Source: Vulcanimicrobiales bacterium (GTDB taxonomy: Bacteria; Vulcanimicrobiota; Vulcanimicrobiia; Vulcanimicrobiales; Vulcanimicrobiaceae). From it: a stretch of DNA of 64,000 nucleotides. The notes under the pieces were generated by a model. The model saw nothing but the letters and a program-made list of their open reading frames with translations. It made no database searches and was not told the origin of the DNA. The stretch is taken from contig JBBRLI010000002.1 in NCBI GenBank assembly GCA_038231455.1, forward strand, positions 64,001 through 128,000, read 5' to 3'. Within the stretch, counting starts at the first letter, position 1, and the number at the start of each line of letters is the position of its first letter. A program made the translations under genes and the position numbers. Positions 27,694-39,977 of the stretch are shown one piece after another.

Positions 27694-27870
27694 GGTGTAT
27701 TTTTCTCCGGACGTGCGCCGCGTCCTCGGAGCGCTTGCTCGCCCGCCCAGAGAGTCTAGCTGAAAATTAATGATTGACTGCTAACGAGTTGAGCAAGGGC
27801 CTCGTTCACAGACCGGCACGAACTCTCGAGGTTCGTGGATTTTGCGGACCCTTTTCTTGGAGGATCCCCG

Positions 27871-28305
27871 ATGAAGACGTTATGTCTTGCCGCAATTGCG
27901 GGCTTCTTGCTCGCGAGCGTTCCGTTTGCCCCAAGCGCGGCACTAGCCGCCTACCACGTCGTGGCTCCCGCCGATGAATATTTCGGTCATCAGCGTCTCA
28001 GTATCTTGGGCATGCGCAACATGCTGCATGACCTGCAGCGCGATTCGCAAAACGGTGCCCGGGGCGATGAGAGTGTCGTCAACAGTGCTCGCGCCGTTGA
28101 AGACGCGATGCACGATTGGCAGTCGCGCTATCCCCTCGATCCGTGGCTACCGCGCTATATCTACCAGCTCGACGGACTCTACCACCGCGTCGATTCTGAC
28201 GAAGCGCACGAGCGCGCCGAACGCGTCCACGCGTGGCTCATCGCCTCGTATCCGAATTCGGTCTACGCGCGGCACGCGCGCGAGAACGACTTTAACCGCA
28301 GTTAA
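27871..28305 (+). CDS. secreted helical hypothetical protein
   Basis: GGAGG RBS, signal peptide MKTLCLAAIAG..., APADEYFG motif, C-terminal YPNS. Confidence 0.75.
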   Translation: MKTLCLAAIAGFLLASVPFAPSAALAAYHVVAPADEYFGHQRLSILGMRNMLHDLQRDSQNGARGDESVVNSARAVEDAMHDWQSRYPLDPWLPRYIYQLDGLYHRVDSDEAHERAERVHAWLIASYPNSVYARHARENDFNRS

Positions 28306-30377
28306 GTCCCTTTGTCCGCTCCGATGTAGCGGATGTATTTTATCGTTGCGGAGGGACGCGTGATGAACGCACTCGCGTCACCGTAGACGAAGTAGAGTTC
28401 ATCGTGCTTGCGGCGCTGCGAGAATGCGAACGACACGTTCGTCCCAAGGACGAACTGCGGTAGCGTGCCGACCGGCGGCGGGGCGCCGACGATTTTTCGC
28501 GCTCCGACCGAGAACGAACCGTTCGCCCCAAGCGTATAGGTGAGACTCGCGCGTTCGAGTCACTGCGTCGCTCGTGTGTGGTTATCGCCAAACCAGTCGG
28601 TGGTATCGGCGCGCAACGTCACCGTCGTGCGCGGCCCACCGAGGTGGAACGATGCCAAGCGCTGCGTCGAGACCAGATTTCCATCGGCAAATCGACCTTT
28701 CTGAATACCGATCGAATCTTGCGTTGCCGTGCCGAGCAGATAATCTACGTTGATTCCGTTTTGGTTGAAGGGCCGCAGCAGGTCGCCGGGGAGCCGCACG
28801 TAGGACGAGCCCGTGGAGATAACGGCCGAGAGCTTTTTCTTCGTAAATGCATTCATGTAGACGTTGTAGTCGGCGAGATTCGTGCCCCCGGTCGATGCCA
28901 CGTAGTGATCGACGAAGGCGCCGTATCCCATTTGCGTGATCGGCTTTTCCGGTCCGAATTTTTGAGTGTGATTGGCTTGCGCGCTGTACCCCGCAAGATC
29001 CGTTAATTGCACGAAGCCATCGTAGGGACTAAAGTATTTCCCGACCTTGCGCGCGCTAACCGAGTAGAAATCGCGTTTGCTCGACCAGCCGAGCCCCGCG
29101 TCGAGGCGCTCTGCGCTTGCGTTATCGAGGACGAGCGTCCCGCGGTCGGCGCTGTAGTTGACGTAGGCCAACAGGTTCTTGTTGCTGTTGTAAAAGAGAT
29201 CCATCGTCTGCGTGACATCGTGGATATCGCCCTGACTTCGACCGAGGTCCGCACTCTCGCGAGAAAATGAGACCGCATAGTGGCGATCGTCGGTCCGCCA
29301 CGTCAGACCCTGCGCCGTATCGATTCGGCCGTTGCCGACGGCATCGAATGCACCGAAATTGAAGCGGCCTTGCGTCCCTTCAATTTGGTAGCCATCACGC
29401 GGCGTTGGAATCGCCGGCGTATAGAGTTCGCTGATCCCCGGACAACCGAAGCAATCCGTATTGTCATAAAAGTGCGCCCCTTGCGTAAAAAACGGGCGTA
29501 CCTCATTGAACGAACGGCGGAACGCGGTCGGCGAGATCGTTTCTTGATCGCGCTCGACGTTGGAATAGTCGGGATGGATCGTGCTCACAAAAGAGGCGGT
29601 CGACGTAATCGGTATGGCAATGTCGGCACCGGCTCGCGACGTCGATCCGCCGACGTCCGCTGTTGCGCGTTCACCTAAGGTATAGAAACCGATGCGCGGT
29701 TTGGTTTTGGCCGCCGTACTGACGAGCCCCGCGAGCGTGCCGGCGTATTGCGACTCCGCGACACTCTGCTGGCTTGGGTTATGCGACCACTCGAAGGTCT
29801 CGTTGTCGTGCTGTTTTCGGCGAGCAAACTGCACGAGCCATTGCGTGCGGCCGTCTCCGCGAATCGCGGCGAGCGGAATCTTCATTGTAACGGAGTAGCC
29901 ATCGCCGCGCACGATCCCCGCCGACTGCCACTCGGGTGAATACGCGGAATTCTCGGATGAGGTCTGATAGTGAATTCCGCGCGGCGTAGCCGCAAAGCTG
30001 TAGAAAAATCCGTTCTTCCCGCTCGGCCAGAGGAACACGTCGACCTCGTCGTCTGTTCCTTGCCCGACGTTGTTGGTCTGCTGCGTCGCGACGATGTCGT
30101 TTTTCTGTTGCGCGTCGAAGGCGACGTACAGATACGCCTTGTCTGCGGCGACGTAGACGTCGGTCGATTCCGGCGCCAGCCGATTGAGCGTGTAATCCCA
30201 CGCGAGCGTGAGATGCGTCCCGGCCTTCCATCCCTCGCGGATCGTGCCGTCGATCGGCAATGGCGCTTTGCTTTCGGCGGCTTGCAGCGCGAACGTTTGC
30301 GAGCTAAGCTCGTCTGCACTTGCAGCAAGCGGTACGCACGCGACGATCGCCGCCAGAAGAAGAATCGATCGGTTCAC
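28302..30377 (-). pseudogene. CBM9-like/DUF5916-like outer-membrane protein interrupted by in-frame TGA at 28560-28562
   Basis: Signal peptide, PIDG, LYVAF, PDYSNVE.D, E.RPFF; after Q* the frame continues LERASLTY...KYIRYIGADKGT* to 28302. Confidence 0.75.
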
Positions 30378-30829
30378 GGCAACTCCGGCGTCGGCAGCAG
30401 AAGGTTGGTTCCGGAAATCGTCGCGCCGCTGAGGTTCACTCCGCTCAGACGCGCGCCGGTCAAATTCGCATCGGTGAGATCGGCACCTTGGAGATTTGCG
30501 CCGGTCAACCGTGCGCCGTGCAAATCGGCGTGTCGCAGGTTCGCCTGCGAAAGATCGCTGCCGGTGAGATTCGCATCGTGGAGATCCGCGCCCTCAAGAT
30601 TCGCGTGCGTCAGGTTCGCGCCGCTGAGCGAGATTCCGTGAACGTCGGCGCCGCGCAAATCGATGCCGTGCAGATCGCAGCCCGTGCAGCGAAAGAAATT
30701 CGGCAGCCGCATGTGCACCGAGATGAAGGCCGGCGGTTCGGGTGGGATCGGTTGCGGTGCGTCGTGATGATGGGGCGCGAGAAGCAGTCCCGCAAGAAAA
30801 GCGCCAAGGCCGATTGCGATTCCATCCAT
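30374..30829 (-). CDS. pentapeptide-repeat protein with N-terminal hydrophobic segment
   Basis: CTGCDL cap followed by A(N/D)LxG pentapeptide repeats. Confidence 0.88.
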   Translation of the reverse strand: MDGIAIGLGAFLAGLLLAPHHHDAPQPIPPEPPAFISVHMRLPNFFRCTGCDLHGIDLRGADVHGISLSGANLTHANLEGADLHDANLTGSDLSQANLRHADLHGARLTGANLQGADLTDANLTGARLSGVNLSGATISGTNLLLPTPELP

Positions 30830-30830
30830 A

Positions 30831-30851
30831 CAACTATATCCTTAAGAGTCG
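30831..30851. promoter_or_regulatory. putative BlaI-family operator 1
   Basis: CAACTATATCCTTAAGAGTCG; overlaps the AAGGA RBS of the 30829 gene. Confidence 0.65.
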
Positions 30852-30867
30852 AGTGCAGAAAAATAGA

Positions 30868-33135
30868 CTAGAACGTCGCGCGGCTCATGTCCGAGCCGGT
30901 GAAGCTGGCACCGGTCACGTTTGCGCCTTTGAGGTTGGTGCCGTTCATATCGCAGCCGATTAGCTGCGCGCCGCGCAAATCGGCGCCCGCAAGGTTCACA
31001 GAGCGAAGGTCGGCGCCGCTTAGGTGAGCGTCGCGTAAATCGGCGTGCCCGAGGTCCGCACCGCGAAAGTCCGCTCCGCTCAACCGGATACCGTGAAGGT
31101 CGGCGTTGCGCAGATTCGCGTTGCGTAGATCGCAGCCGGAGCAATCGTGTAAGAGGTCACGCGTGTATTGACCTTCGCTCAAGTGAACCCGTCCGATCTC
31201 GGAGCCGGAGAGTTTGACGCCGCCAAGCTGCGCGCCCTCGAGGTTCACATCGATGAGCGACGTCCCAAAGAGGCGAGCGTTGCGTAAATCGGCACCTTGC
31301 AAAGCGGCTCCCCGTAAATCGACTCCTGTGAGCGTAGAGCCGTTCAGATTCGCTCCGCTCAAATCCGCGCCGCGTAAGTTGATGCCGGTGAGTGATTTGC
31401 CGGCGAGATTGATTCCGGAGAGGTCGCGACCGTGAAAATCGCACCCGAGGCACCGGATGACGACCTCGGCCGGAATGGGTCCACCCAGCGGAGCCGATTT
31501 ATGCAAGCGGAGCTGGCGCAGTGGTCCGTTGCCATCGGGAAGTTCGACGCGGAGTTCCGGAATCGACGGACGGATCACAATCGTACGGGAGCGCGGAGCG
31601 AGGCTCGCACTTGGAGCCGGTTCGGGGACGGGCGCGACACCGAGGGGCGGTATCGTCGGCGTAGCGGCCATCGCTTCCGCTGCTGCGGCGAGCGCTGCGC
31701 TGGCAACGCTCGTATCGACGAGCGCCTTCTGTTGCAGCTTGCGGATGGATTGCTCGAGCTCGATTTTGTCGGGATGTTGTCCGCGCAAGATGACGATCTT
31801 GCGTTCGAGGATGCGCGTGTCGGCGCCGCGATGTTCGCGCGCAACATCTTGAATGTGCTGGAGCGCTTGGCGCTGTCCGGGCGTCAGCGGCGTTGGGGCA
31901 CTGCGCGGTTCGGCCACGACGAGTGGGGTCGTCGGCAGCTCTTGAAGTGCGATCGATTTTCGCGTATCGCCGACGATGAAGTTGGGAGCGGGAATCGTGG
32001 TTGCGCTCGGGTGTGCTTGCAGTTTCGCATGCGCGAGCGTCGGCGGGTCCGCGGGCGACGTGAGTTCGATCGCCGGGGCGCTCACGGACATCGTAAGGAT
32101 TGCGAGAGCCGATCCAAGACCAAGCGTTGCGAGCGCCGGTGCCGAGAGGCGCGGCCGCAAATCGCGACGCGCGTCGAGGAGTTGCTCGATGCGGACCGTG
32201 ATTTGTTTGCGCGTCAAGAGAGCCCCGGGCGCGACAATCGCGTGCTCGGGCATGCGCATCTCTTTGGCGAGGCGCCAGAGCGACTCGGCGTACTCTTGCG
32301 GGTGGCCCGTTTGTGCGACCACGCAATCATCGGATGCGATCTCGCGTTCCAGTGCGATGCGTTTGCCGACCAGCCAGACGACCGGGTTAAACCAGAAGAG
32401 TCGCTCGACCACGCGCTGCGCGAAGTTCGTGTAATCGTCGTAGCGACGGAGATGCGCGTGCTCGTGCATGACGAGCGATTCGATCGCGCCGAGTCCCTCG
32501 TGCGTCGCAAGCTCCGTCGGGATCAAGATGACGGGGCGTCCAAATCCAATCGCAACCGGCGTTTCGATTTCGTAGCTCAAGCGCAAATAGATTTCGCGTG
32601 CGCGAACATCGGTGAGCCAAGGGAGTTCGCCGGCAAGCGATCCTTCAAGCGGGCTCGACCGGCGTTTCAGACCTTGAACGCGCAGCACGCTTGCGATCAG
32701 CATCGCAAAGCCAATCGCGGCCCCGGTCGCCCAGATCACGAGCGCACCGATTGCAATGGACTCCGGGATGGTAATCGTCGGAAGACGAGGCGCCGGTGCG
32801 GAGAGCGTCGTCGCTGCTGAAGTGGCGGCAGTCGAGATCGAAGTCGATCCCACGTTCCCGCGATGCGGATGCACCGGCACGGCATCACTCGTCGTGGTCG
32901 CGGCTGTGATATAACGGACGTGCGCGAGTGAACTGACGATGCTCGCCACCGGCAAGATGGCGATCGCGAGCAGCGCCAGCGACCACACGGTGTGGCGCGC
33001 AGCCGCGCGCATCGGGAGAAACTTCTCGACGACCAGCCACACGATGCCGGCGAGGAAGGCGCCGACGAGTGCGCTCTCGGCGAGGGCGCGAACGGCAAGG
33101 CGCGGGAGCGCAGCGAGAAGTTCGCTTGGGATCAC
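30868..33135 (-). CDS. BlaR1/MecR1-like M56 metallopeptidase fused to C-terminal pentapeptide repeats
   Basis: N-terminal TMs, P...G..RP.I..P, HEHAH, D, FWFNP..W, RE..SD, TM, Pro-rich linker, then CLGC- and CSGC-capped pentapeptide blocks. Confidence 0.9.
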   Translation of the reverse strand: MIPSELLAALPRLAVRALAESALVGAFLAGIVWLVVEKFLPMRAAARHTVWSLALLAIAILPVASIVSSLAHVRYITAATTTSDAVPVHPHRGNVGSTSISTAATSAATTLSAPAPRLPTITIPESIAIGALVIWATGAAIGFAMLIASVLRVQGLKRRSSPLEGSLAGELPWLTDVRAREIYLRLSYEIETPVAIGFGRPVILIPTELATHEGLGAIESLVMHEHAHLRRYDDYTNFAQRVVERLFWFNPVVWLVGKRIALEREIASDDCVVAQTGHPQEYAESLWRLAKEMRMPEHAIVAPGALLTRKQITVRIEQLLDARRDLRPRLSAPALATLGLGSALAILTMSVSAPAIELTSPADPPTLAHAKLQAHPSATTIPAPNFIVGDTRKSIALQELPTTPLVVAEPRSAPTPLTPGQRQALQHIQDVAREHRGADTRILERKIVILRGQHPDKIELEQSIRKLQQKALVDTSVASAALAAAAEAMAATPTIPPLGVAPVPEPAPSASLAPRSRTIVIRPSIPELRVELPDGNGPLRQLRLHKSAPLGGPIPAEVVIRCLGCDFHGRDLSGINLAGKSLTGINLRGADLSGANLNGSTLTGVDLRGAALQGADLRNARLFGTSLIDVNLEGAQLGGVKLSGSEIGRVHLSEGQYTRDLLHDCSGCDLRNANLRNADLHGIRLSGADFRGADLGHADLRDAHLSGADLRSVNLAGADLRGAQLIGCDMNGTNLKGANVTGASFTGSDMSRATF

Positions 33136-33515
33136 GGTGCGTTACGCTTCTTGTCGAGCATCGCGCGCAGGTGCGCCAGTTCCGCGTCGTCGACTTCGTC
33201 CGACTCGATCAAGTTGAGCACGAGTTCGCGCGGCGAGTTGTTGAAGAAGCGGGACACGACGTGCGAGACGACACTGCGCTGCGCATCTTCGCGCTCGACG
33301 ATCGCTTTATAAACAAAGGCGCGCCCGATCGCTTTGTGGCGGACGTAGCCCTTTTGTTCGAGGATACGCATGGTCGTGAGCACCGTGTTGTAGGCGAGCG
33401 GCGGATCGCCGAGCGAATCGACGACCTCGGCTACCGTTGCGGTCTCGCGGTTCCAAAGAATATCCATGAGGCGGAATTCCGCCTCGGTAAGCGTCGGCGA
33501 CTTTTTGCGGGCCAT
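33132..33515 (-). CDS. blaI: BlaI/MecI/CopY family transcriptional repressor
   Basis: LTEAE..LM.ILW, AYNTV.T.M..LE.KG, GRAFVY, FF.NS...L. Confidence 0.93.
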   Translation of the reverse strand: MARKKSPTLTEAEFRLMDILWNRETATVAEVVDSLGDPPLAYNTVLTTMRILEQKGYVRHKAIGRAFVYKAIVEREDAQRSVVSHVVSRFFNNSPRELVLNLIESDEVDDAELAHLRAMLDKKRNAP

Positions 33516-33521
33516 ACGGGG

Positions 33522-33568
33522 ACGGTAGCACACGCCTGCCGAGCCGTCAACTAATTCCTTAGGTGTAC
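33522..33568 (-). promoter_or_regulatory. leaderless sigma70-type promoter of blaI with overlapping operator 2
   Basis: TTGACG(33550-33545)-17bp-TACCGT(33527-33522) with TG extension, 6 nt before ATG; operator CAACTAATTCCTTAGGTGTAC at 33548-33568. Confidence 0.65.
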
Positions 33569-34434
33569 TACCCATCGACCCGGGCTCCGGTGAGATCGGC
33601 GTGGCCTAGCGTGCGAAGCTCGTCGGCCGTTACCGGGCGGCAGTTGTGATCGTCGTATTCACAGTACCGGACACCGCGCAAATCGGTGCCGGCCAGCTTC
33701 GCGCCGGAGAAGTCCGCACAGTCCGTTTTTCCCGAGACGGTCACGACGCCGTTGTACGAATGCCGGGTTTCCGGGAAGCACACCGACGCGTTCCGCAGTG
33801 AGGCGCCCTCGAGATGCGCGTTTCGAAAGCTTACACCCAGGAGCGACGCGTCGCTGAGGTCGGCATTGCGCGCGTCGGTATCGTCCATATCCGCGCCGAC
33901 GAGGTGCGCGCGTAAAAACTTCGTGCGTTGCAAGTCGTCGCCGCGGAGATTCGCGCCGATGAGGCGCACGTCGCTAAGGTCAAGGTCGCGGAGATTCGTC
34001 GCACGGAGATCGCAGCCGGTGCAGGAACGGAAAAGCAGCTTTGCATTCCGCATCGATTCGAGCGTTTGATTCGTGATGCGGATGCCCACCAGTTTGACAT
34101 CGGTCAGGGTCGCATTGGCGAAGCTCACGCCATCGAGCGATGTGCCGGTGAATGTGGCGCCGGTCAAGTCGGCTCCGTCGAGCTTCGCGCCGCGCAAATG
34201 GCAGCCCACGAAGTGGGCGCCGCGAAGATTCGCACCGCGTAAATCCGTGCCGTCGAGATTTGCCCCGACGAGCGTAATCTCGTGCAGGTCGCGGCCGTGC
34301 AAGTCGACCTCGCCGAGGTTACAGCCGGTGCACCGCGAGAGCAGTGCGCGCGAGGTATCCTCGGCGCGGACAGTCGTCCCGGCGGCGAGATTCAGGGCCA
34401 CGATCGAGAGGGCAACGATAACGAAGCGTTTCAT
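33568..34434 (-). CDS. secreted pentapeptide-repeat protein
   Basis: Signal peptide MKRFVIVALS...VRA; two CTGC-capped pentapeptide blocks; additional C-terminal Cys. Confidence 0.9.
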   Translation of the reverse strand: MKRFVIVALSIVALNLAAGTTVRAEDTSRALLSRCTGCNLGEVDLHGRDLHEITLVGANLDGTDLRGANLRGAHFVGCHLRGAKLDGADLTGATFTGTSLDGVSFANATLTDVKLVGIRITNQTLESMRNAKLLFRSCTGCDLRATNLRDLDLSDVRLIGANLRGDDLQRTKFLRAHLVGADMDDTDARNADLSDASLLGVSFRNAHLEGASLRNASVCFPETRHSYNGVVTVSGKTDCADFSGAKLAGTDLRGVRYCEYDDHNCRPVTADELRTLGHADLTGARVDG

Positions 34435-34435
34435 G

Positions 34436-34511
34436 CAACTAATTCCTTAGGTGAGCGTGGATCGACCCTACCACGGCGCCTCACGACTGTCAACTATAAG
34501 CTTAAGAGTTG
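34436..34511 (-). promoter_or_regulatory. sigma70-type promoter with operators 3 and 4
   Basis: TTGACA(34493-34488)-17bp-TAGGGT(34470-34465); operators CAACTAATTCCTTAGGTGAGC (34436-34456, over RBS) and CAACTATAAGCTTAAGAGTTG (34491-34511, over -35). Confidence 0.7.
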
Positions 34512-34546
34512 GGAAAGAAATCTTCACAGGGGGCGAAACCGACCGC

Positions 34547-36208
34547 ATGCAGAGCTACGTTCACGGCGCGAGCCCCGTTCCGCTCATCGGTGCGACGATC
34601 GGCAGCTATTTCGATGCAATCGCGAAGCGTTTCCCGGAAATCGATGCCGTGGTATCGGTGCACCAGGGCCTACGCATGACGTACGCTCAGCTCCGGGATG
34701 CAACCGATCTTTTTGCCCGCGGCCTCATGGCGCTCGGTGTCCGGCACGGCGACCGCGTCGGCATCTGGTCGACGAACTCGCTCGAATGGGTGATCGCGCA
34801 GTATGCGACACCGAAAATCGGCGCGATCCTCGTCAACGTCAACCCCGCGTATCGCACCTCCGAATTGCAGTATGCGCTCGCGCAAAGCGGCGTAAGCGTT
34901 TTGCTCGCGCAGATCTCTTATAAGACGAGCGCGTATTTGGCGATGATCGCCGAGGTGCGTGCGGATCTGCCGGAGCTTCGAGAAATCGTAGCGATCGGTG
35001 ATGAATCCATCGACGCGCTCCCCGGGGCGGTGCGGTGGAACGACGTCAACGCGCGCGCTGTTGAAATCGCGCCACAAGCGCTCGCCGAGCGTCTTGCCGC
35101 AACCGAGTTCGACGAGCCGATCAACATTCAGTACACCTCGGGGACCACGGGATTTCCCAAAGGCGCGACCCTCTCGCATCACAACATCCTCAACAACGGA
35201 TTCTTCATCGGCGAGGGCTGCGGATATACAGAGCGCGATCGCGTCTGCATTCCGGTGCCGTTCTATCACTGCTTTGGCATGGTGCTTGGCAACATGGCCT
35301 GTATCACGCACGGTGCGACGATGGTGATTCCGAGCGGCACGTTCGATCCGGCGCTCGCGCTCGATGCCGTGCAGAAAGAGCGTTGCACGTCGCTCTATGG
35401 CGTCCCGACGATGTTCATCGCGGAACTCGCGCTGCCCAATTTTCACGCATACAAGCTCGATACGCTGCGGACGGGAATCATGGCGGGTTCGCCCTGCCCC
35501 GTTGAGGTCATGAAGCGCGTGCAGACCGAGATGCATATGCCCGAAGTCACGATCTGCTATGGCATGACCGAGACATCGCCGGTCTCGTTCCAAACCGGCA
35601 AGAGCGATTCCCTCGAGAAGCAAACGACGACCGTCGGCAAAGTTCATCCGCACTTGGAGTGCAAGATCGTCGACGAAGGGGGCAAGATCGTCCCGGTAGG
35701 GACGCCCGGAGAATTATGCACGCGCGGCTACAGCGTGATGCTCGGCTACTGGAACGACCAGCAGAACACGGCTGCTTGCATCGATGCCGCGCGATACATG
35801 CATACCGGCGATATCGCGATCATGGACGACGAAGGGTATGTCAATATTAGCGGCCGCATCAAGGACATGGTGATTCGCGGCGGCGAGAACATCTATCCGC
35901 GCGAAATCGAAGAGTTTCTCTATTCGTGCGTGGGCGTCAAAGACGTTTCTGTCATCGGCGTGCCCGATGAAAAGTACGGCGAGCAACTGTGCGCCTGGGT
36001 GATCCGGACGCCCGATGCAACGATCGACGCCGATGCGATTCAAGCGCACTGTCGTGGAAAAATCGCGCACTACAAGATTCCCCACTACATCCTCTTTGTC
36101 GATGAATTTCCGATGACGGTCTCGGGGAAAGTCCAAAAGTACAAAATGCGCGAGGCCTCGATCGCGACACTGGGACTCGAACGTGCCGCCAGCGTCGTCA
36201 CGGCCTAA
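34547..36208 (+). CDS. acyl-CoA synthetase (AMP-forming)
   Basis: YTSGTTGFPKG, HCFG, YGMTE, HTGD, GRIKD..IRGGENIYP, SGKVQK. Confidence 0.93.
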   Translation: MQSYVHGASPVPLIGATIGSYFDAIAKRFPEIDAVVSVHQGLRMTYAQLRDATDLFARGLMALGVRHGDRVGIWSTNSLEWVIAQYATPKIGAILVNVNPAYRTSELQYALAQSGVSVLLAQISYKTSAYLAMIAEVRADLPELREIVAIGDESIDALPGAVRWNDVNARAVEIAPQALAERLAATEFDEPINIQYTSGTTGFPKGATLSHHNILNNGFFIGEGCGYTERDRVCIPVPFYHCFGMVLGNMACITHGATMVIPSGTFDPALALDAVQKERCTSLYGVPTMFIAELALPNFHAYKLDTLRTGIMAGSPCPVEVMKRVQTEMHMPEVTICYGMTETSPVSFQTGKSDSLEKQTTTVGKVHPHLECKIVDEGGKIVPVGTPGELCTRGYSVMLGYWNDQQNTAACIDAARYMHTGDIAIMDDEGYVNISGRIKDMVIRGGENIYPREIEEFLYSCVGVKDVSVIGVPDEKYGEQLCAWVIRTPDATIDADAIQAHCRGKIAHYKIPHYILFVDEFPMTVSGKVQKYKMREASIATLGLERAASVVTA

Positions 36209-36209
36209 C

Positions 36210-37181
36210 GTGCGTGCGCTCCTCATCCTCGCACTCATGCTTGCGTGCGCAAGTAGCGCACGCGCGCAAGCGGTGCCCGCTGGCCGACCCGAACTCGCAA
36301 AGATCGGCGCGTCAGAATACACACTCCCCGAAGACTCATTTCTAAAGAGTTATTTCCTCTTCGCGGGGCGCGATGCCGCGCTCGCGCCGACCGTCGTCGG
36401 CGTCGGGCCGAGCTTTCTCTTCGTCAGTCACGCGGGACACGCTGCGGAAACGATCGACCCGGATCGTGCGTTCCGCCCCGTAGCGCAGGCGATCGGCGGT
36501 GACGGGGCGCTTTGGTTTGCAGAGCGGGACGGCACCGCAACGCGCGTCGATTCGAGCGGATTCTTTTCTTCGGTCGCGCTCGCCTCACCGGCACTTGCGA
36601 TTGCGGGCGACGGCGCGCACACGGACGTGCTCGAATCAGACGCTGTCGAGTCTTTCGATGCGCTGGGTGTTCGGCACCGAATTTCGCTCGGGCGTAAGAT
36701 CGCGCGCGGTTCGATTCGGGCTCTCCCAAACGAAATTGTCATTGCGGCGGATGGGATCGCCGGCATTATTCGCATCGACCGCGCCGACCGCGTCGAAATT
36801 CTCAAACTCGAGGACGACTTCCGTCCGGGCGCGCTGCAAGTCGTCGGCAACACGGTTTGGTTTGCGCTCGAGATCGGTGGTACGACCTCGACGCGCCGCG
36901 TCGGTCGCGTGCACGACCGCGTCATTCAGACCATCGACGTACCGACGTTCGCACCAATCCATTCCATCGGCGCGGGCGCGGACAACCGCTTCTTCGTGAT
37001 CGAGTCGTTCGACGTCTACGGCGTGGTAAGCAACGACGGCCAGTTGGTTTGCGAGCGTTCGATCGGCCAAGGATTCCCCCCGCTCGTCATCTCGCAGATG
37101 TTCGTTGATGCGCGGGATTCGACGTACGTAACGACGAGCCGCGTTCCGGGATTTTACAAGGTAACCGACGCCTGCCGTTAA
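36210..37181 (+). CDS. secreted beta-propeller-like hypothetical protein
   Basis: Signal peptide; G.DGALWFAE and similar Vgb-like beta-strand repeats. Confidence 0.6.
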   Translation: MRALLILALMLACASSARAQAVPAGRPELAKIGASEYTLPEDSFLKSYFLFAGRDAALAPTVVGVGPSFLFVSHAGHAAETIDPDRAFRPVAQAIGGDGALWFAERDGTATRVDSSGFFSSVALASPALAIAGDGAHTDVLESDAVESFDALGVRHRISLGRKIARGSIRALPNEIVIAADGIAGIIRIDRADRVEILKLEDDFRPGALQVVGNTVWFALEIGGTTSTRRVGRVHDRVIQTIDVPTFAPIHSIGAGADNRFFVIESFDVYGVVSNDGQLVCERSIGQGFPPLVISQMFVDARDSTYVTTSRVPGFYKVTDACR

Positions 37182-38680
37182 GCGGGCTCGGGAACAAAAG
37201 CCGCGGCGACGAAGCGTCGCTGCACTTTGCCGGTGGCGGTCTTGGGAATCGCATCGGTCACGTGCATGACGGTCGGGACTTTGAACGATGAGAGCTTCGT
37301 TGCAACGTGCGCGCGCACGTCATCCACACTGACGCCCGGCTTGAGGACGACGGCGGCCGCGACGACCTCGCCGTACTTTTCATCGGGCATCCCAAACGCC
37401 ACGGCTTCGATCACGCCGTCGTGCGAGAGCAGTGCCTCGTCCACTTCGACCGGAGAGATTTTCTCGCCGCCGCGATTGATCAACTCTTTGAGTCGCCCGA
37501 CGAGCGTGAGGTAGCCGTGCTCGTCGAGAATCCCGTAGTCGCCGGTGCGAAACCAGCCGTTCGTAAACGACGCGGCGTTCGCGGCGTCGTTGTTGTGATA
37601 ACCGCTCGTTACGTTCGCGCCCCGGACGGCGACTTCACCAACTTCACCTGGTTCGCGTTCGCTACCGTGTTCGTCGAGGATCGTCACGGCGACGAACGCG
37701 CCGACGCCGACCGAGCCCGCGCGTCGCTCGCCGCGCAGCGGGTTCGCGCACATCTGATGGGCGGCTTCGGTCATCGAATACGCTTCGATCACGGGCACGC
37801 CGAAGCGGGCTTCGAGACGATGCATTTCGAGGGCCGGCAGCGCCGCGCTGCTTGAGCGGAAGAAGCGGACCGTGTGTTCGCCGCCGTGCGGCGCGCGATC
37901 GTCGTCGGCACGCAAGAGTAGCGTGCGATAGATCGTCGGAACGGCGCTCACGACGGAAACGCCGAATTCGGCGACCGTCGGCCAGAAGGCACTTGCAGAG
38001 AACTTCTCGGGAATGACGACACTTGCATGTGCGCCGAGCGTCGCGAGTGTTGAGAAGACGAGGCCGTGAACGTGAAAGAGCGGCATCACGCAGAGCGAGA
38101 TGTCGCTCGGACCCAGCTCGTACCATTTGCCGATGTTGAGCGCGGATGTGGTAAGATTGCGATGCGAGAGCGGGACGCCTTTGGGCCGGCTCGTCGTGCC
38201 ACTCGTGTGCAGAAAGAGAGCGATGTCGCTCTCGTTCACCGTATCGCTCGCCGCGGCCGCGGCAAGTGACTTTCCATCAACGAGCGCGAGGCCGTTGTCG
38301 TCGAGTGAGAAGTCGGCAACGCGAATGCCAAGCGAAATCGCCGCCGTGCGCGCGGCCGGAACCGTTCCCGGCGCGAGCAGCACGAGCTTGGGTGCGATGT
38401 CCTCAAGATAGAAGCGAAACTCATCTTCGGTGTATGCCGCGTTGAGCGGCGCGAACGTCGCACGTGCGGCGGCGACGCCGAAGAACGCGTGCACGATCGG
38501 AGCACCGTTGGCAAACGACGCTGCAACGCGATCGCCTGGGGCGATCCCGCGGTCGGCCAGTGCCGCGGCAAGTCGTGCCGCGCTTGCGCGCAGCGTTGCA
38601 TAGCTATGTGCGGCACCTTCGGGCGTGAGGATCGCGACCTTTTCTGCCGGCGCGTTCGCCAGTAATCCCTCAAGTGTCAT
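37178..38680 (-). CDS. acyl-CoA synthetase, probable oxalate--CoA ligase (AAE3/PCS60-like)
   Basis: LFLHTSGTTSRPKGVPLSHRNL, PLFHVHGL, RSSSA, EAYSMTEAAHQM; adjacent to oxlT. Confidence 0.85.
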   Translation of the reverse strand: MTLEGLLANAPAEKVAILTPEGAAHSYATLRASAARLAAALADRGIAPGDRVAASFANGAPIVHAFFGVAAARATFAPLNAAYTEDEFRFYLEDIAPKLVLLAPGTVPAARTAAISLGIRVADFSLDDNGLALVDGKSLAAAAASDTVNESDIALFLHTSGTTSRPKGVPLSHRNLTTSALNIGKWYELGPSDISLCVMPLFHVHGLVFSTLATLGAHASVVIPEKFSASAFWPTVAEFGVSVVSAVPTIYRTLLLRADDDRAPHGGEHTVRFFRSSSAALPALEMHRLEARFGVPVIEAYSMTEAAHQMCANPLRGERRAGSVGVGAFVAVTILDEHGSEREPGEVGEVAVRGANVTSGYHNNDAANAASFTNGWFRTGDYGILDEHGYLTLVGRLKELINRGGEKISPVEVDEALLSHDGVIEAVAFGMPDEKYGEVVAAAVVLKPGVSVDDVRAHVATKLSSFKVPTVMHVTDAIPKTATGKVQRRFVAAAFVPEPA

Positions 38681-38681
38681 A

Positions 38682-39977
38682 TCAGGCAAGTGCCTCTCTT
38701 GTTGGTACACCGGAGCCGAATTCGCCGCGCGCGGTCTCGGTTTCTTCCCGTTCCCGTTGCTGCGCGCGCTCGCGAAGAGGTTTGAGCGCCACGAGCGCTA
38801 GGATGGCGGTGATGAAATTGAAGATCATCACGACGACAAAGATTGCGACCCAGCTTCCGGTTGCCGCGGTGATGATCGAACCAATCGGAACGACGAACGA
38901 TGCCACGCCTTTGCCCGTATAGAGCAGACCGTAATTGGTTGTGGCATAGGTGCGCCCGTACAGATCGCCGGAGGTCGCGGGAAAGAGGCTGTAGATTTCG
39001 CCGGCGGTGAAGAACATGAAACCGGTAAGCAAGACGAACACGAGCGGATTCTTCGCGAAGAGCAGCATTGCACCGATCGCCGTCCCTTGCAGAACGAACG
39101 CGATAAACATCGTTTGCTCGCGTCCGATGCGATCGGAGAGCGCACCGAAGGCCGGGCGGCTCAGACCATTGAGGATGCGGTCGAGCGTCAGCGCGAACGG
39201 CAACGCTGCAAGCGTGATTCCTGCGATGGACACCGGTGTTTTCGCAATCCCAAAGTCGGTTGCGAGGACGCCGAGTTGCGCGGTTACGAGCAAGCCGCCC
39301 GTCGCGACCATCACGAGCATTGCGTAGAGTAGATAGAACGAAGGTGTGCGCAACATTTGCCTTGGCGTGAAGTTGCGCATCGTTGCCCGTGCGCTGGGCG
39401 CTCGGTCTTCGCTCGCGCCGGGTTTGACGAGCAGCAGCGCGACGGCGATAACAATCGCGCCTTGGATCCAGCCGAAGGTGGTAAACGTCGCGCGGTAACC
39501 CGAACTTGCAATCATGTTCGCAATCGGAACGACTGTGAGCGCTGCTCCGGCGCCAAATCCGGCGGCAGTCAATCCGGCGGCGAGCCCGCGCCGGTCGGGG
39601 AACCACTTAATGGCATTCCCGACGGCCGTCCCGTAGACGATCCCCGCGCCCACACCGCCGACGACGGCGCCGGCGTAGAGCATGGGAAGCGACGTTGCGG
39701 CGCCGTCGACTAGCCAAGCGGCGCCGACGAGCACCCCGCCAATCGCGACCATCGGGCGCGGCCCGATCCGATCGATGAGATACCCCTCGACCGGCACGAG
39801 GAACGTCTCCGTTAGAACGAAGAGCGTAAAGGCCCACTGGATTGCTGCCTTGCCCCAGTGATTTGCTTCCACCATCGGAGGGACGAACTGAGCCCAGCCG
39901 TACTGCAGGTTGGCGATCATTATCATCGCCACGATTCCAAGACTAAGTTGGAGCCACCGATTGCGCACGAAACCCAC
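38682..39977 (-). CDS. oxlT: oxalate/formate antiporter family MFS transporter
   Basis: RWLQL..G...M..IANLQYGW, KWFPDRRGLAAG..AAGFG.G, SDRIGRE.TM, GEIYSLFP, TTNYG.LYT.KG. Confidence 0.88.
   Translation of the reverse strand: MGFVRNRWLQLSLGIVAMIMIANLQYGWAQFVPPMVEANHWGKAAIQWAFTLFVLTETFLVPVEGYLIDRIGPRPMVAIGGVLVGAAWLVDGAATSLPMLYAGAVVGGVGAGIVYGTAVGNAIKWFPDRRGLAAGLTAAGFGAGAALTVVPIANMIASSGYRATFTTFGWIQGAIVIAVALLLVKPGASEDRAPSARATMRNFTPRQMLRTPSFYLLYAMLVMVATGGLLVTAQLGVLATDFGIAKTPVSIAGITLAALPFALTLDRILNGLSRPAFGALSDRIGREQTMFIAFVLQGTAIGAMLLFAKNPLVFVLLTGFMFFTAGEIYSLFPATSGDLYGRTYATTNYGLLYTGKGVASFVVPIGSIITAATGSWVAIFVVVMIFNFITAILALVALKPLRERAQQREREETETARGEFGSGVPTREALA

Follow-up and report, generated by a model that had tools for sequence, protein, structure and literature searches.

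The BlaI-BlaR1 and MecI-MecR1 systems of Staphylococcus aureus and Bacillus licheniformis couple a repressor carrying an LVLN|x motif to an M56-family membrane protease with four transmembrane (TM) segments and an HExxH motif; repressor and protease are co-transcribed, and palindromic operators lie on both the regulator and the output promoters. The BlaI/MecI operator is a TACA/TGTA dyad, and the bond cut in S. aureus BlaI is N101|F102. The same plan can be recognized in a locus that we describe here from a Vulcanimicrobiales bacterium, within a window of 64,000 nucleotides (JBBRLI010000002.1, positions 64,001 to 128,000; all coordinates are positions in this window unless a contig is named). 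Its sensor-protease, M56-PRP, ends in a pentapeptide-repeat protein (PRP) domain, and it is encoded together with a BlaI repressor and two free PRPs, PRP1 and PRP2. This M56-PRP module is a genuine variant of the BlaI/BlaR switch, conserved and so far undescribed. On balance it probably serves a diderm bacterium of the Vulcanimicrobiota type as a proteolytic BlaI/M56 switch that regulates itself, and through which the envelope is surveyed and exported PRPs are replenished.

The minus strand carries five genes, arranged head to tail, from 28305 to 34434. The preliminary description of this DNA had listed the same set on one strand, and the coordinates of the open reading frames (ORFs) and the Pfam domains bear this out (E-values in parentheses):

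33568-34434, minus strand: PRP1, a putatively exported two-block pentapeptide-repeat protein of 288 residues with nine cysteines (PF00805, 9.9e-39).
33132-33515, minus strand: blaI, a BlaI/MecI-family winged-helix repressor of 127 residues without cysteine (PF03965, 1.5e-32).
30868-33135, minus strand: M56-PRP, a sensor-protease of 755 residues (PF05569, 6.7e-35, residues 20-318; PF00805, 4.7e-44).
30871-31473, minus strand: the PRP sensor domain of M56-PRP (residues 555-755), made of two blocks with a short cap helix, CxGC and beta-helix coils.
30374-30829, minus strand: PRP2, a one-block PRP of 151 residues with a CTGCD cap (PF00805, 4.5e-50).
28305-30377, minus strand: an outer-membrane-like gene with a signal peptide, a CBM9-like domain and a large beta-barrel; in-frame TGA at 28560-28562.

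The TGA stop of PRP2 overlaps the GTG start of the outer-membrane-like gene (GTGA, in the context ccGTGAacc), and a 4-nt overlap likewise joins blaI to the M56 gene. The true start of blaI is most likely the ATG at 33515 (MARKKSPTLT) and not 33575, because its homologues begin MPRKKSPTLT.

We followed conservation in 37 confirmed related loci, 34 of them of the M56-PRP family (551,765 bases for the 37 loci and the window). They are mostly labelled Vulcanimicrobiota, Eremiobacterota or WPS-2, and a few Limnocylindria or Armatimonadota. BlaI contains the Penicillinase_R winged-helix domain (PF03965, 112.7 bits against a cut-off of 22.6) and aligns end to end with MecI (1SD6, 1OKR) and BlaI (1SD4), placing LVLN-L opposite LVLN-F. 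This LVLN|L (residues 98-102) is kept in 34/34 clade loci; by alignment, the MecI/BlaI cleavage-site motif is retained. The best NCBIfam match of BlaI is CopY/TcrY, at 59.2 bits and below the cut-off of 121.95. The protein has no cysteine at all and so lacks the C-terminal cysteine metal hook of CopY; it is therefore not a metal repressor of that type.

The M56 domain of M56-PRP (PF05569, 121.1 bits against a cut-off of 31) aligns with residues 107-266 of S. aureus BlaR1 (8EXP), HExxH included. Here the motif reads HEHAH (residues 224-228; 32452-32466) and is followed by an ExxxD motif, E265xxxD269; H224, E225, H228, E265 and D269 are invariant in all 21 aligned M56-PRP proteins, and HExxH was found in every one of the best 120 of 1922 database matches. 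From these residues both the repressor and the protease look functional. The NCBIfam model blaR1_generic gives 73.9 bits against a cut-off of 400 and its match stops at residue 323, which indicates that M56-PRP is BlaR1-like in its transducer half only. Where a penicillin-binding (acyl-serine) sensor domain was looked for, residues 555-755 proved to be PRP. Pfam, NCBIfam and the 8EXP alignment thus agree with the earlier proposal of a BlaI and M56 module in which a PRP domain replaces the penicillin-binding domain. In total, the genome encodes four BlaI-family and three M56 proteins.

Signal-peptide and TM calls were made from hydropathy and by eye. Four TM segments are predicted in M56-PRP (residues 14-32, 53-71, 123-141 and 330-348, the last at 32092-32148), with the protease between the third and the fourth, matching the plan of BlaR1. 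Since the protease has to meet cytoplasmic BlaI, residues 349-755 would lie outside the cytoplasm. In the AlphaFold2 model (21-row alignment, mean predicted local distance difference test, pLDDT, of 62.4), helices match the TM segments, and the M56 part and the linker have low confidence. The linker from the fourth TM segment to the PRP domain is about 200 residues long and Pro/Ala-rich; its residues 358-549, which include two helices, are of low confidence. The PRP domain is confidently modelled (residues 555-755, pLDDT 88-97), with short helices at 556-561 and 657-662 directly preceding each CxGC. Its assignment rests on at least eight tandem A(D/N)LXX repeats in a quadrilateral beta-helix (PF00805 at 1e-38 to 1e-50 in the module, and the coils of the model), and a Foldseek search with the sensor domain returned PRP structures only.

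The free PRPs raise the question of export. The available text of PMC8145042 reports a 29-residue signal peptide and a C-terminal disulfide for Rfr32, an N-terminal helix and a solved Cys39-Cys42 "disulfide bracket" for Rfr23, and a lumenal location for At2g44920. The accessible part of PMC12864828 describes Caulobacter YjbI as a secreted outer-membrane PRP with cysteine pairs at both ends, which silences the envelope-stress systems UzcSR and ChvGI, and which is degraded under zinc, copper, acid or sucrose stress and then re-made. The preliminary description had held that exported PRPs do not fit the known ones, a statement that has to be dropped given that Rfr23, Rfr32, TL15, At2g44920 and YjbI are already known as exported or lumenal. 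With two positive charges, a run of hydrophobic residues and a VRA|E site, the N-terminus of PRP1, MKRFVIVALSIVALNLAAGTTVRA|ED, resembles a Sec signal peptide. A start with MIR or MKR, a hydrophobic run and an AxA-like site is common to PRP1 and 22 orthologous downstream PRPs (by eye and hydropathy). PRP2 has the leader MDGIAIGLGAFLAGLLLAP, which is hydrophobic and uncharged, and similar leaders occur in its relatives. The number of cysteines is nine in PRP1, 4-9 in its orthologues and 2-9 in the paralogues; together with the signal peptides, such numbers fit an oxidizing compartment. The four TM segments, signal peptides and cysteine richness all point outside the cytoplasm, where the PRP parts most likely reside, in line with the export assumed at the outset.

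It had also been noted that all five PRP blocks open with CxGC(D/N), and this holds residue by residue: C35-TG-C38-N and C138-TG-C141-D in PRP1, C562-LG-C565-D and C665-SG-C668-D in M56-PRP, and C48-TG-C51-D in PRP2. The four sensor cysteines are invariant in 21/21 aligned M56-PRP proteins, as are C35, G37, C38, C138, G140 and C141 of PRP1 in 11/11 orthologues. Among the best 120 of the 1922 database matches, two CxxC motifs follow residue 330 in 111 proteins, three in eight and one in a single protein. Across these alignments the caps are conserved and not a product of chance. The second cysteine of the cap occupies the "A" position of the first A(D/N)LXX repeat, which accounts for the D/N right after the cap. 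The N-terminal CxGC is present in all free PRPs; four further C-terminal cysteines are conserved in PRP1, and PRP2 has none at its C-terminus. When we aligned the cap to solved PRPs, including Rfr23, sequence gave repeat-to-repeat matches only.

PRP1 and the sensor domain are colinear over the full extent of the latter (43% identity to residues 558-745), and PRP2 matches the second block of that domain (52% identity to residues 664-754). At these identities both free proteins are paralogues of the sensor domain, and the earlier idea that sensor and free PRPs share one fold stands on this paralogy. All 12 PF00805 matches in the 3.71-Mb genome, which is 93.7% complete, fall inside the module. 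PRP1 is the orthologue (37-40% identity) of a PRP of about 290 residues found downstream of M56-PRP in most relatives, with which it shares the cap DDLARQLIxSCVGCR, the second CTGC and the four C-terminal cysteines; here it lies upstream of blaI instead, with a duplicated operator (O2 and O3, below). A second downstream PRP type, encoded in four related loci (L010, L013, L021, L028), combines a single repeat block with a second CxGC and a stretch that is helical and charged; its long tail is rich in proline (PPLPTLPP...) and may span the envelope or bind the wall.

The candidate operator of the module is a 20-bp palindrome, ideally TCAACTAA-N4-TTAGTTGA. It is present in four copies, which are listed here with the two promoters and, for two copies, the score against a position weight matrix (PWM):

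34490-34509, minus strand: O1, ACTCTTAAGCTTATAGTTGA, overlapping the -35 box of P1.
34488-34493 (-35 box, TTGACA) and 34465-34470 (-10 box, TAGGGT), minus strand: P1, the candidate PRP1 promoter, with a spacer of 17 nt.
34435-34454, minus strand: O2, TCACCTAAGGAATTAGTTGC, covering the AAGGA ribosome site and ending 1 nt before the PRP1 ATG (18.2 bits).
33547-33566, minus strand: O3, ACACCTAAGGAATTAGTTGA, between PRP1 and blaI, overlapping the -35 box of P2 (21.0 bits).
33545-33550 (-35 box, TTGACG) and 33522-33527 (-10 box, TACCGT), minus strand: P2, the candidate blaI promoter, followed after 6 nt by the blaI ATG.
30830-30849, minus strand: O4, ACTCTTAAGGATATAGTTGT, in the gap that separates the M56-PRP stop from PRP2, covering the ribosome site of PRP2.

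O2 and O3 have 18 identical bases in common, and the spacing of operator, AAGGA and ATG is equal at O2 and O4. A 19-nt motif, ACTCTTAAG-NN-TATAGTTG, precedes both PRP1 and PRP2 (two in the window against 0.00 expected from shuffles); with up to two mismatches allowed, the 3.71-Mb genome contains no further match, and the reversed control gave none. The regular expression CTTA-N6-TAGTT matched 57 times in the 551,765 bases, always on the strand of the module: 35 times just before blaI, 20 times at the junction after M56-PRP and twice in the window. With the PWM, a site was found before blaI in 33/34 loci and after M56-PRP in 20/28 plus L010, with two matches elsewhere, counts that are partly circular since the matrix was built from the same loci (here and below, downstream counts are restricted to 28 loci, those with 1200 nt or more of sequence on that side). 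In the family of the window the palindromes are perfect or near-perfect over 20 bp, and a perfect TCAACTAATATATTAGTTGA occurs in L043. Relatives conserve TTGACA-N17-TAGCGT-N5/6-ATG before blaI, with the operator overlapping its -35 box; P2 has an equal layout, and O1 is positioned relative to TTGACA as in 33/34 related loci. As the blaI -10 box lies just 5-6 nt before the ATG in nearly all relatives, the mRNA is probably leaderless. The PRP genes thus share the candidate operator of blaI, as would be expected from the BlaI control that had been proposed for them, and we infer that BlaI binds these boxes.

Two automated scans had missed these elements. An inverted-repeat scan of the intergenic regions (seed 6) found none, because the operator is too imperfect in this genome, and it was its direct recurrence that revealed it. 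A consensus promoter scan gave no site because the -10 boxes TAGGGT and TACCGT are weak; P1 and P2 were read by eye and from conservation. Elsewhere in the genome, three further PWM sites score as high as the module operators (21.9-22.6 bits). The one at C16:58384-58403 lies between a promoter-like stretch and a secreted ORF of 290 residues with a sub-threshold LolA_like match, and those at C4:109027-109046 and C19:14008-14027 have no clear gene link; all three may belong to additional members of the regulon or serve the three other BlaI paralogues as operators. Another match, at C13:6780, was taken as false because it lies inside a tRNA-like sequence.

The preliminary description had suggested examining the neighborhood across genomes. 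blaI is directly upstream of M56-PRP in 34/34 related loci, and a PRP gene follows downstream in 22/28. The M56-PRP fusion itself is kept in 31/34, the remaining three being two contig ends and one frameshift. The order blaI, M56-PRP, PRP, at times with the outer-membrane-like gene, recurs in the window's own taxonomic family, and 23 of the 31 genomes of its class have a module match (a tally including the unpublished genomes G009 and G030). Both domains are present in all of the best 120 of 1922 database matches, and by these counts the fusion is common in Vulcanimicrobiota-type genomes. A literature search, whose coverage did not extend to subscription journals, returned no paper on an M56-PRP fusion. 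In three loci (L010, L047, L050) the M56 and PRP domains are in different frames: the CxGC cap is still read together with M56, and the repeats fall in the ORF that follows. These breaks inside the sensor are frameshifts or sequencing errors. A single position, 31411 within the sensor PRP domain, distinguishes a second assembly from the window over 28200-34600 (plus strand, G to A).

The fifth gene had been described as a GTGA-coupled outer-membrane-like protein. The coupling and the fold hold; the gene is not intact. Its homology runs to 28305, with an in-frame TGA at 28560-28562 (minus strand) in place of a Trp codon: relatives read KQWLERAS where the window reads TQ*LERAS, and the Trp is at least 90% conserved in 45 sequences. 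The second assembly, from the probable source run, has identical letters at 28560-28562. The stop may reflect a nonsense mutation, a pseudogene or a variant within the population. DUF5916 (PF19313) reaches 24.2 bits against a cut-off of 22.6 with 65 residues matched only, and CBM9_1 reaches 20.1 bits, below its cut-off of 23.4; a literature search found no paper on DUF5916. We modelled the intact homologue P0122 (694 residues, 75% identical), whose predicted fold is well supported (pLDDT 84.5, predicted template modelling score 0.86). It shows a CBM9-like sandwich (TM-score 0.70-0.74 to 1I82 and 7NWN), then more than 20 long antiparallel strands matching FadL, pilus ushers, LptD, AlgE and TonB-dependent receptors. 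This combination of CBM9 and barrel makes "outer-membrane-like" a fair label.

Around the module, two acyl-CoA synthetase-like genes form its flanks in the window (34451-38710) and in L032. L032 is labelled Armatimonadota (acyl-CoA synthetase match at E 4e-280), so that this local gene order is common to a differently labelled lineage. On the plus strand, convergent to the module, 27835-28305 encodes a small secreted protein that belongs to no Pfam family. Its homologues are convergent downstream in 26/28 related loci, with 5-7 copies of the family per genome in five named relatives, and no operator stands beside the copy in the window. The ESM Atlas assigns the family to "secreted protein" clusters of Vulcanimicrobiota and gives a lead, though a weak one (0.86-0.89), to BamD/YfiO-type TPR proteins.

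We propose that, in the resting state, BlaI dimers on O1-O4 would repress P1, from which PRP1 is read, and P2, which would give the leaderless blaI-M56 message, and that BlaI at O4 would block read-through into PRP2 and the outer-membrane-like gene. A change or envelope event at the periplasmic PRP domain would then activate the cytoplasmic protease, which would cut BlaI at N101|L102 and derepress all five genes. Synthesis of both PRPs, of the regulators and, where its gene is intact, of the outer-membrane protein would follow, and the free PRPs would act in the envelope. By analogy with Caulobacter YjbI, the purpose of the module is most likely cell-envelope surveillance, with the induced exported PRPs as its protective or structural output. 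Being copies of the sensor domain, the free PRPs could compete for the sensor's partner and so reset the switch by negative feedback. A bolder version, which we regard as possible but doubtful, is that the switch measures its own product: tethered and free PRPs would share an envelope site or partner, much as YjbI is placed in the outer membrane, and loss or damage of the free PRPs in envelope stress would activate the protease, so that cleavage of BlaI would restore their supply. A complex prediction for sensor residues 545-755 with mature PRP1 scored 0.01 against a mark of 0.32, in a run that had no controls, and counts neither for nor against an interaction.

Several observations weigh against this proposal. 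The leader of PRP2 lacks a charged n-region and a cleavage site, which leaves its membrane side uncertain. Crude local alignment scores gave no signal of co-evolution between sensor and PRP1 over 11 loci (mean rank of the own partner 5.3, with 6.0 expected). On the regulatory side, the circularity of the PWM counts leaves the window-derived regular expression as the sole independent test, no recognizable promoter precedes O4, where a roadblock role is a guess, and a search for sequencing runs over 30300-34600 returned no RNA run covering the region and one DNA run, probably the source. The outer-membrane-like gene follows in merely 2/28 clade loci, and its product here loses the last 85 residues to the premature stop. 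G001, the other genome of the same genus (92% complete), gave no module match, which suggests that the module is dispensable or mobile. Finally, the related genomes are kin, so that conservation of gene order partly reflects descent and the counts are not independent.

Other explanations start from the same evidence. In the main alternative, the CxGC pairs of the periplasmic domain might bind metal (Cu/Zn) or switch between dithiol and disulfide and thereby trigger the M56 protease, with the induced cysteine-bearing PRPs as a buffer for the metal or oxidant; the preliminary description had suggested redox or disulfide sensitivity. Such a sensor would be in keeping with the invariance of the CxxC pairs, with the sub-threshold CopY/TcrY match of BlaI, with the copper response of Synechocystis, governed by the BlaI/M56-type pair PetR/PetP according to the available part of 10.1101/2020.07.31.226407, and with the disappearance of YjbI under zinc or copper stress (available text of PMC12864828). 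We nevertheless find it unlikely. The CxxC of Rfr23 is a structural disulfide bracket as far as the accessible text of PMC8145042 tells, and YjbI's four cysteines are not required for its zinc-induced turnover (PMC12864828, in the part available), two precedents that make a redox role unneeded. In addition, the second cap cysteine is at an inward-facing "A" position that suits packing over ligand binding, some 100 residues (five coils) separate the two caps, and a BlaI without cysteine has no CopY-type metal hook. Most likely, the CxGC caps are structural disulfide brackets. If instead the PRP domain is a tether or scaffold, for example to the outer membrane or peptidoglycan, then the trigger would be in the membrane segments or the cytoplasm, as with BlaR-like proteins that have no sensor domain, and the PRPs would be ordinary structural envelope proteins. 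Sensor-less BlaIR occurs in Mycobacterium tuberculosis and M. abscessus, and PvmSR in Pseudomonas aeruginosa, to judge from the available section of 10.64898/2026.08.03.742534; the linker of M56-PRP is long, Pro/Ala-rich and of low confidence, and a module so widespread in its class (23/31 genomes) fits a housekeeping role. Against this, no other extracytoplasmic part is as well conserved or as confidently folded as the PRP domain, which stays fused in 31/34 loci, and the C-terminal domain serves as the input in every BlaR1-type protein studied; we therefore hold a mere tether to be rather improbable.

The fold itself invites two further readings. PRPs are DNA mimics in MfpA, Qnr and AlbG, all found among the fold matches, and in Caulobacter point mutations in yjbI weaken contact-dependent bacteriocin killing, as stated in the accessible text of PMC12864828. 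The module could accordingly be a sensor-plus-decoy defense in the periplasm, its PRPs posing as DNA, against incoming agents that bind DNA or are sensitive to DNA mimics, such as nuclease bacteriocins or phage proteins. The preliminary description had likewise put forward a decoy and a resistance role, both conjectural. This defense is very unlikely, since the domains are only mildly acidic (isoelectric points of 5.7-6.1), searches whose queries were the window proteins only showed neither toxin and immunity genes nor phage genes next to the module in the 34 loci, and the idea is purely one of analogy. We consider a cytoplasmic gyrase protection like that of Qnr and MfpA, induced through BlaI against quinolone-type poisons, to be extremely improbable: the NCBIfam matches that suggest it are weak (50.9-57.9 against a cut-off of 240 for Qnr, 49.6-54.1 against 360 for MfpA), and the signal peptides, the many cysteines and the position after the fourth TM segment all speak for export. 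Envelope surveillance through an exported PRP domain remains our preferred interpretation.

The module is of interest mainly because it offers a way into what exported PRPs do. Beyond gyrase protection, the biochemical role of most PRPs is unknown according to the available text of PMC8145042, and the first envelope role for a secreted PRP was reported only in 2026 (PMC12864828, accessible part). Here, exported PRPs appear to be wired to a simple and portable two-protein signalling device with a defined candidate operator. Its parts (repressor, protease, the four operator sites and both PRPs) could be reassembled in a laboratory host, and the resulting system screened for the signal. The module would add the beta-helix to the input domains usable by M56 proteases; it appears near-universal in a poorly studied phylum (Vulcanimicrobiota/Eremiobacterota) and may be its main envelope-stress pathway. 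Should the switch indeed measure its own product, it would be a self-referential integrity sensor made from one fold, a direct one-step counterpart of the loop between YjbI and two-component systems, and the first assigned role of a PRP as a signalling input domain.

Compared with BlaR1, the sensor here is a two-block PRP beta-helix on a long linker and not a penicillin-binding domain. The candidate operator is ACTAA-N4-TTAGT, unlike the TACA/TGTA dyad, and the putative outputs are exported PRPs and an outer-membrane protein in place of beta-lactamase or PBP2a. PetR/PetP of Synechocystis (copper), the sensor-less mycobacterial BlaIR and PvmSR represent the same two-protein proteolytic switch for non-beta-lactam signals; as far as the available parts of these reports go, the proteases of these pairs differ in having neither a large extracytoplasmic domain nor a paralogous secreted partner. 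Rfr23 (2O6W), Rfr32 (2G0Y) and At2g44920 (3N90), all of them among our sequence and fold matches, likewise combine a signal peptide, an N-terminal helix cap and disulfides in the descriptions available; they differ in consisting of one block, in coming from cyanobacteria and plants, and in that no regulator or partner is known for them. YjbI, which we compared by description only and from the accessible part of its report, is an exported PRP with a signal peptide and cysteine pairs at the ends of the quadrilateral beta-helix. It is tied to envelope-stress signalling, as the module would be, with a loop that re-makes the PRP. PRP2 departs from it in lacking the C-terminal cysteine pair. The targets of YjbI are two-component systems, and it is itself no part of a sensor, whereas here a PRP is fused to the M56 protease and the loop would run through BlaI.

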